Shown piece by piece: positions 10,957-11,170 of a stretch of DNA of 11,431 bases. The DNA lies in the IMG/VR virus record IMGVR_UViG_2651869755_000021, one strand, 5' to 3'. The position numbers were made by a program, and so were the translations under genes. The notes beneath the pieces were generated by a model, which was given only the letters and a program-made list of their open reading frames with translations, was not told the origin of the DNA and searched no databases. The stretch comes from a virus (taxonomy: Duplodnaviria > Heunggongvirae > Uroviricota > Caudoviricetes). Position 1 is the stretch's first letter, and every line of letters starts with the position of its first letter.

Positions 10957-11170
10957 TCTCAATCCTTATCTGCGTAGGCGCAGAAAACAAGCTCACACAT
11001 ACAAGTCTTTTCTACGGGACAAAATGCAATGTGTTGCGGTTTTGTGTTGCTGGACTGAGTTTATCAAGGTTAAATACACTGGATCAACATACAGTAAGTT
11101 AATGACAGTAAAGCATATAAACTCGATACAACTTACTGATTTTAAAATGATTTAACGGTAATACATTGAA
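10957..11170. other. Element/host junction: probable attachment-site region plus int and yfhL promoter region
   Basis: Non-coding AT-rich 214 bp between the integrase start and host yfhL; contains a small palindrome TCTGCG-tagg-CGCAGA (10969-10984). Exact att core cannot be defined without the other end. Confidence 0.4.

Follow-up and report, generated by a model that had tools for sequence, protein, structure and literature searches.

The int–yfhL interval of an Escherichia coli prophage as a probable arm of the attachment site, with the att core inside the yfhL coding sequence

The interval between the integrase gene (int) and yfhL (positions 10957–11170), together with the first 10 codons of yfhL, is phage-derived DNA in the Escherichia coli prophage whose right-hand 11.4 kb was analysed in this study (11,431 nucleotides in full, referred to below as the window). 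We consider it highly probable (about 90%) that this interval is the P arm of attR, and that a lambda-type integrase joins an attP of ~490 bp to a 16–18-bp target in the 5' coding region of yfhL. According to the mechanism proposed here, cleavage and strand exchange between these two sites would take place inside the sequence AATTGTGATATGTGTGAA, whose codons would be constrained by the encoded protein and for that reason recognisable across hosts, much like tRNA genes. Directly to the left of the core the phage carries its own upstream DNA and an in-frame imitation of yfhL codons 1–10, and integration therefore does not destroy the gene. The prophage-proximal copy of yfhL becomes a chimera with a phage 5' end and a host remainder, and the host promoter and the first 16 codons stay at attL as an 18-codon stub. 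Conserved repeats are spread over the 214-bp interval, the initial ~120 bp of int and, in attP, ~108 bp on the right side of the core, with TGTGTTRC present four times on the P side and, on the P' side, twice in direct and once in inverted orientation.

From position 248 to its end, the window is 99.9% identical to NZ_CP047378.1 (strain CAU16175), in which the element is a ~48-kb prophage with yfhH on one side and yfhL on the other, containing genes for terminase, head/capsid, myovirus-like tail and lysis. The window codes for DUF2800 and DUF2815 proteins, a polymerase A (PolA)-type DNA polymerase, a VRR-NUC nuclease and an SNF2-type helicase. Its first 247 positions hold what we take to be the terminus of an IS1 copy, identified by the inverted repeat GGTGATGCTGCCAACTTACTGATTTAGTG on the minus strand; this IS1 end is absent at the matching position of CAU16175, where the alignment starts at 248 and contains one 9-nt gap. 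Since the CAU16175 prophage carries several IS insertions (IS3, IS30 and IS4-family) and a frameshifted primase, it is probably a defective, IS-riddled element, and this copy may have lost the ability to excise. The host genes beyond yfhL are, in order, shoB, acpS, pdxJ, recO, era and rnc. Phage genes are absent from this stretch, so the element is indeed bounded here, and the comparison of the junctions agrees with the initial annotation in placing the integrase-proximal end of the integrated element at this locus.

The gene int (9559–10956, minus strand) encodes a tyrosine integrase of 465 aa, starting with the ATG at 10956, as in the PGAP annotation of the identical CAU16175 gene (tyrosine-type recombinase). 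The protein matches PF00589 with residues 246–359 (30.4 bits, cut-off 27.1) and the integrases of PHROG 1 (E 1.7e-26), and it shares 76% identity with its counterpart in Serratia phage vB_SspS_OS31 (OS31). In an alignment of 12 sequences, in which catalytic roles were assigned by eye, the residues R268, K301/K304, R386, H416/H417 and Y429 are invariant, and by the same by-eye assignment the first His of the HxxR motif is apparently replaced (FNTMCR). The N-terminus shows a weak match to the arm-binding domain PF13356 of Pfam (E 0.075; 13.6 bits, cut-off 27), and such a domain has been reported for the OS31 homologue (PMC7556043). A PDB sequence search with the integrase gave no match, and no family was found in a search of NCBIfam.

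On the opposite strand (9362–9562, plus), a small gene encodes a 66-aa HTH protein, a putative excisionase. Its score against HTH_17 of Pfam (25.8 bits) is slightly below the gathering score of 27, its best match is PHROG 4745 (E 1e-26), described merely as a DNA-binding protein, and its similarity to excisionase families is weak (phrog_66, E 1.4e-5; phrog_1553, E 7e-5). The homologue in phage OS31 occupies the same position and is annotated as an excisionase; judging from these similarities, the protein is probably an excisionase. The two genes are convergent and their stop codons overlap by 4 nt (9559–9562), as is also the case in OS31; the genes for recombination are thus placed in transcription units of opposite direction.

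The core of the attachment site was defined by a four-way comparison of the attB of strain K-12, the attL and attR of lysogens and the attP of unintegrated viral contigs, which included a three-way alignment of the window (attR), K-12 (attB) and the region just downstream of yfhH in CAU16175 (attL). The sole block identical in all four sites is the 18-bp sequence AATTGTGATATGTGTGAA (11201–11218, plus strand), corresponding to yfhL codons 11–16 (N C D M C E), which encode part of the first Fe-S cysteine motif of the protein (CxxCxxCxxxCP). To the left of this core, attB and attL carry the host sequence ATGGCGTTGTTAATCACTAAAAAATGCATC (MALLITKKCI), whereas the window carries ATGTCTTTACTAATTACTAAACGCTGTATT; to the right, attB and the window continue with host yfhL, whereas attL runs through ATTAAATAA into phage DNA. 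Judging from this pattern, the crossover must lie within 11201–11218. Around the core, no dyad symmetry that could represent core-type sites was consistent between the attP of E. coli and that of Serratia.

This location modifies several statements of the initial annotation. The distance of 214 bp between int and yfhL is exact (int ATG at 10956, yfhL ATG at 11171), and the interval does contain attachment-site DNA, as a P arm with conserved repeats but not as the core, which had been expected within 10957–11170 and lies instead 31–48 bp into the yfhL ORF. Alignment with an empty site, the check proposed at that time, did define the core, at 11201–11218 and not in the intergenic region. Likewise, the target is not a tRNA gene, as had been supposed, but neither is it intergenic or merely close to a gene, since the core is inside the yfhL ORF. 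ARAGORN found no tRNA or tmRNA in the whole window and Rfam none either; at E≤10, a search of the region 10700–11431 against Rfam gave two noise-level snoRNA matches only, both inside int. A tRNA or tmRNA gene, or a 3' fragment of one, is thus absent from the junction by both programs, attB is yfhL coding sequence, and a target of this type was rejected.

The distribution of occupied and empty sites was analysed by megablast of positions 10800–11431 against 5426 complete E. coli genomes. All 5426 contain a match to yfhL; in 5266 of them the match starts at 11181, inside the ORF, and the whole int–yfhL junction was matched in 160. The reciprocal query, extending from the 3' end of yfhH through yfhL of K-12, found the yfhH–yfhL site uninterrupted in 5266 of the same genomes and occupied in 160, and in these 160 the empty-site query breaks at position 1538 of the K-12 locus, which is the last base of the core. 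In some E. coli genomes this query gave up to three separate matches, which suggests tandem or repeated occupancy of the site.

The integrase was also used to scan IMG/VR, which yielded 80 loci, mostly prophage calls ending at yfhL. Two of the contigs (L029 and L032) carry an unintegrated attP, in which the phage-type 5' end of yfhL and the core are followed by ATCAAATAAAAACAC and not by yfhL. Left of the core, L032 and the window share 98–99% identity across 1600 nt; on the right, 108 nt of L032 are 100% identical to the attL of a second lysogen, EC0585, whose phage backbone differs. Contig L064 represents another form of attP, with TGC-type codons, in which the identity with the host stops two bases sooner, and this variant trims the common core to its first 16 bp, AAYTGYGAYATGTGYG. 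Because these contigs link the 5' end of yfhL carried by the phage with the P' arm, recombination of attB with attP gives attL and attR, with a core of 16–18 bp, and the 214-bp interval and the first ten codons of yfhL are phage DNA.

The yfhL ORF of the window (11171–11431, plus strand) is consequently composed of two parts. The start codon and codons 2–10 (11171–11200, plus strand) are a phage-borne surrogate, recognised by its mismatch with attB and its identity with attP, and codons 17–86 with the stop codon (11219–11431, plus strand) are derived from the host and match all 5426 E. coli genomes. The surrogate differs from the 5' end in host attB (MALLITKKCI) at 9 of 30 nt, and it is identical in the unintegrated attP contigs; the substitutions (A2S, K8R) are conservative. 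Scored against the NCBIfam YfhL equivalog NF033683, the chimeric YfhL reaches 135 bits (cut-off 86), and the gene has therefore been rebuilt, not broken. The original 5' end of the host gene, with the core, is found at attL, ~48 kb away, as an 18-codon stub. The three features by which replacement of a 5' end is recognised, namely a 5' coding target, an in-frame 5' end supplied by the element and the original end at the far junction, are thus all present. Three prophages from IMG/VR (L046, L047 and L068) have hybrid yfhL 5' ends, phage-type ATGTCTTTACTAAT and then host-type CACTAAAAAATGCATC, and exchange or gene conversion therefore occurs in the homeologous surrogate region to the left of the core.

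Two other views of the junction have to be weighed against this evidence. In the model put forward by the initial annotation, the core would lie in the 214-bp interval and yfhL would be an intact and unmodified flanking gene of the host. The divergent orientation of int and yfhL, 214 bp apart, and the absence of a tRNA gene are in keeping with this model, but similarity to the empty site does not begin before 11181, and identity is exact only from 11201 onwards, within the ORF; moreover, the interval, which has no counterpart in attB, is joined to the P' arm in contigs that carry an unintegrated attP. The four-way comparison of att sites refutes this model, and to assume rearranged empty sites in 5266 genomes would be implausible; we regard it as almost certainly wrong. 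Nor is yfhL the plain host neighbour that it was taken for, since the first 10 codons, start codon included, and all of the DNA upstream of them come from the phage, as the contigs L029, L032 and L064 show. It is just as improbable that the first 10 codons are an allele of the host's own yfhL or arose by homologous recombination, with the junction at or to the left of the yfhL start. Exchange is possible in this region, as seen in L046 and L047, where 14 nt of the phage type are followed by sequence of the host type; however, the same 30 nt are physically joined to the P' arm in the free attP contigs, and the genomes in question keep the host-type 5' end and core at attL.

A different objection concerns the fate of the gene: integration could inactivate yfhL if the restored ORF, separated from the host promoter and ribosome-binding site, were silent or poorly translated. 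In support of this, yfhL was listed among the genes 'disrupted' by phages (Bobay et al., PMC3603311), the DNA upstream of the chimeric start contains no consensus promoter and no clear Shine-Dalgarno sequence was found there, and four relatives have a GTG start of yfhL. On the other hand, the in-frame surrogate is kept in 15 of the 17 related loci described below, from many genera, and in the attP contigs, a pattern that speaks for selection acting on what the codons encode, and the chimeric protein, with its conservative substitutions, scores as a full YfhL equivalog. We therefore consider inactivation unlikely and favour the reading in which 5'-end replacement preserves the gene.

The conservation of motifs in the arms of attP was examined in an alignment of 13 non-redundant attR regions and by motif scans. 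The candidate arm-type site TGTGTTGC is located inside int, at +114 from the ATG (10835–10842, minus strand), and occurs at the identical position, within fully conserved nucleotide runs, in 15 of 17 related sequences; the conserved block adjoining it, CATGTGTG (10849–10856), resembles the right half of the core. Another candidate, TGTGTTAC (10937–10944, plus strand), falls in int codons 5–7 (+12). It is present in 14 of the 17 related sequences, and in Providencia it has been kept despite the different amino acids encoded (MSGKATQ vs MPCTVTH). Nearly invariant in the 13 aligned loci is the block CTCACACAT (10992–11000, minus strand), a candidate integrase-binding site that, read as its reverse complement ATGTGTGAG, is similar to ATGTGTGAA, the right half of the core. 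Finally, two tandem copies of the candidate arm-type site TGTGTTGC, 13 bp apart (11030–11037 and 11043–11050, plus strand), were recognised by their clustering and conservation, and nearly all relatives have them at the same distances from the int ATG (–81 and –94).

All four matches of the window to TGTGTTRC are inside the 216 bp between 10835 and 11050, whereas 0.83 would be expected in the whole 11.4-kb window. In the P' arm the same motif is present in direct orientation at +43 and +55 and in inverted orientation at +99, conserved in CAU16175, EC0585, L032, L064 and OS31, and the homology between distinct phage backbones stops just past the last of these copies. Both arms thus contain repeated sites distinct from the core, at positions conserved across genera, to which the putative ligand would be Int.

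Closer to yfhL, the sequence AATCAGTAAGTTG (11129–11141, minus strand) conforms to the IHF consensus (WATCAnnnnnTTR). All 14 sequences examined have it at the same place, and its consensus positions are invariant whereas the central N5 varies. Four matches to this consensus in the window, against 1.55 expected, are not significant alone. The 13-mer of the attP arm is identical to a 13-mer in the IS1 end of the window (224–236, plus strand). The ends of IS1 are known IHF-binding sites, and the putative IHF reading of the attP copy fits with this identity. By analogy, the layout of the motifs is that expected of a lambda-type attP. From these motifs we infer that Int, at the arm-type sites, IHF and possibly LexA bind in the interval, and the conserved repeats and the IHF-consensus site most likely serve to assemble the recombination complex.

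The possible role of LexA is indicated by a LexA-box-like dyad, CACTGGATCAACATACAGTA (CTG-N10-CAG; 11077–11096), situated 121–140 bp upstream of the int ATG and 75–94 bp upstream of the yfhL ATG. With a LexA PWM built from a hand-compiled set of 14 E. coli SOS boxes (training sites 14–26 bits), the dyad scores 19.2 bits and exceeds every other site of the window by 9 bits; with the same matrix it ranks top in 12 and second in 2 of 14 related loci. It is conserved across genera, at the same position in L004–L021, but the window dyad has CTGG, the canonical right-half CAG is missing in 6 of 16 relatives, and the bare CTG-N10-CAG pattern is not enriched in the window. A literature search found no report of an SOS box inside attP.

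The initial annotation had also expected the promoters of int and yfhL within the interval, but consensus scans for sigma-70 promoters located none, neither in the window's own spacer nor in those of two relatives, L007 and L008. Two arrangements were nevertheless considered as the presumed origins of transcription. The conserved pair TGATT...GTAAT close to the yfhL ATG, on its upstream side, was tried as the –35 and –10 elements of a promoter giving a near-leaderless mRNA, and was dropped because the –10 element lacks the conserved T6, because of the GTG starts mentioned above, and because the conserved positions fit the IHF consensus exactly. A promoter directed towards int around the dyad (TTAACT/TTACCA-17/18-TATAAA), noticed by eye in four relatives, remained unsupported, the window having only TGTATT. 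The palindrome TCTGCG-TAGG-CGCAGA described earlier in the int 5' leader is present exactly at 10969–10984, with a 6-bp stem and a 4-nt loop, and is probably not a functional element. Its fold has a z-score of –0.76, with 41 of 200 shuffled sequences folding equally well or better. The palindrome is broken by uncompensated changes in the closest relatives (94–95% identical integrases), shows uncompensated substitutions in relatives from Kluyvera, Citrobacter, Shimwellia and Sodalis, and is absent from more distant ones; with such a z-score, and in view of its poor conservation and the lack of compensatory changes, it was rejected as a regulatory hairpin.

By geometry, any transcript of yfhL in the lysogen must start in phage DNA. 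The remaining potential of the interval is possibly regulatory, comprising promoter replacement and a possible link with the SOS response, and the LexA-like dyad may couple transcription from the interval to that response. A complete promoter swap would go further: yfhL would come under phage control with a LexA-like operator, yfhL and/or int would be SOS-responsive, and at attL the displaced host promoter would drive transcription across the stub and on into the phage genes there. We regard a swap of this kind as rather doubtful; if true, it would give the attP arm a second function, the regulatory rewiring of a host redox gene.

A species-level scan, with one genome per species, revealed 17 related loci, in Escherichia, Shigella, Kluyvera, Citrobacter, Shimwellia, Raoultella, Sodalis, Pantoea, Erwinia, Symbiopectobacterium, Serratia and Providencia. 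A yfhL homologue that aligns from residue 1 starts upstream of int, in divergent orientation, in 16 of these loci (one is frameshifted), and in 14 the distance between the two genes is 213–216 bp. Megablast of the int–att region against 50,697 phage records gave no match; OS31 is the sole relative in the phage collection and was found by the protein-level search only.

The same int–attP cassette was observed on unrelated backbones: that of the CAU16175 prophage (L002/L003), with PolA/DUF2800 replication genes and a myovirus-like tail, that of OS31 (L004), a lambdoid siphovirus, and that of EC0585 (L022), with a third set of left-end genes. Since the backbones of OS31 and CAU16175 differ, the cassette moves between unrelated phage backbones. 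Two loci do not fit the simple int–yfhL picture. In L015 (Raoultella scottii, 629–4407), a 90% identical integrase has another N-terminal extension, comes after an ORF for a 587-aa P4-like primase and has neither yfhL nor the attP arm upstream; a satellite-like element with a different target may have acquired it. In L090 (IMG/VR, Sodalis-like), just upstream of int, 57 nt of the P' arm with one arm-type site separate the core from the remainder of yfhL, and the insert brings a stop codon that disrupts the gene; this looks like the scar of a tandem integration followed by deletion in a degenerating genome.

The system is an ordinary member of a known integration class at a published insertion site, and the present results are refinements and do not describe a new kind of system. 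In the literature we found no description of yfhL 5'-end replacement, of the anatomy of the E. coli core and attP, of arm-type sites inside int or of the conserved LexA-like dyad. For annotation, the boundary of the prophage has to be moved inside yfhL, which in lysogens is a phage/host chimera, neither disrupted nor untouched. The integrase cassette, present in about 3% of complete E. coli genomes and also across Enterobacterales, now has a defined att core of 16–18 bp and an attP of ~490 bp, which is useful for the delimitation of prophages and for typing the insertion sites of Stx phages, and the cassette could become an orthogonal tool for site-specific integration. It is also a further example of the known class of integrases whose target is a conserved stretch of coding sequence and which restore the gene into which they insert.

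The best-known attP, that of lambda, contains arm-type and core-type sites for Int and sites for IHF and Xis. The attP described here resembles it in the short common core, the long arms with repeated non-core sites, the IHF-consensus site and the separate small HTH excisionase, putative in the present case. In contrast to lambda, int is transcribed away from att and two of the repeats are in its 5' coding region, the target is inside a gene, and the P arm contains a LexA-like dyad; the binding of proteins is here only predicted.

The closest relative is OS31 (MT843276; Bujak et al. 2020, PMC7556043), reported to be inserted in the 2[4Fe-4S] ferredoxin gene of its host. Besides the 76% identical integrase and the convergent int and xis genes, it shares the location of att in the same codons of a yfhL-family gene, the surrogate 5' end and the layout of arm-type, IHF-like and LexA-like sites. 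The 23-bp att annotated in OS31, TCGCACATGTCGCAGTTGATGCA, corresponds to the C-I-N-C-D-M-C-E codons in reverse complement and is preceded by a surrogate of its own (MALLITKRC). The paper on this phage contains no description of 5'-end replacement (PMC7556043). The two elements differ in that OS31 is a lambdoid siphovirus, with a 23-bp core and Serratia codon usage, whereas the present prophage has PolA replication and myovirus-like tail modules. In E. coli, yfhL was named in 2023 and 2025 as a newly identified insertion site of Stx2b prophages (PMC10675304, PMC12029490). The insertion gene is the same, but those papers give the name of the site only, and the examined region of the prophage described here contains no stx.

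Protein-coding targets are also used by phage 21 and e14, which integrate in icd (cited in PMC3603311). In both cases the phage carries a duplicate gene end and the ORF is preserved; however, in icd it is the 3' end that is replaced and the host promoter is kept, whereas at yfhL the phage substitutes the 5' end together with all of the control DNA upstream of it. The mechanism parallels that of the dusA-specific integrases, for which the element-borne replacement of the 5' end of the target gene is a hallmark (Farrugia et al. 2015, PMC4482086). As in the dusA elements, a new in-frame 5' end is supplied, the original end is found at the distal boundary and the integrase gene adjoins the rebuilt gene. 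The likeness noted here is one of mechanism. The target of those elements encodes a tRNA-modifying enzyme, whereas in the present system it encodes a ferredoxin, and the core coincides with the stretch coding for its Fe-S cysteine motif.
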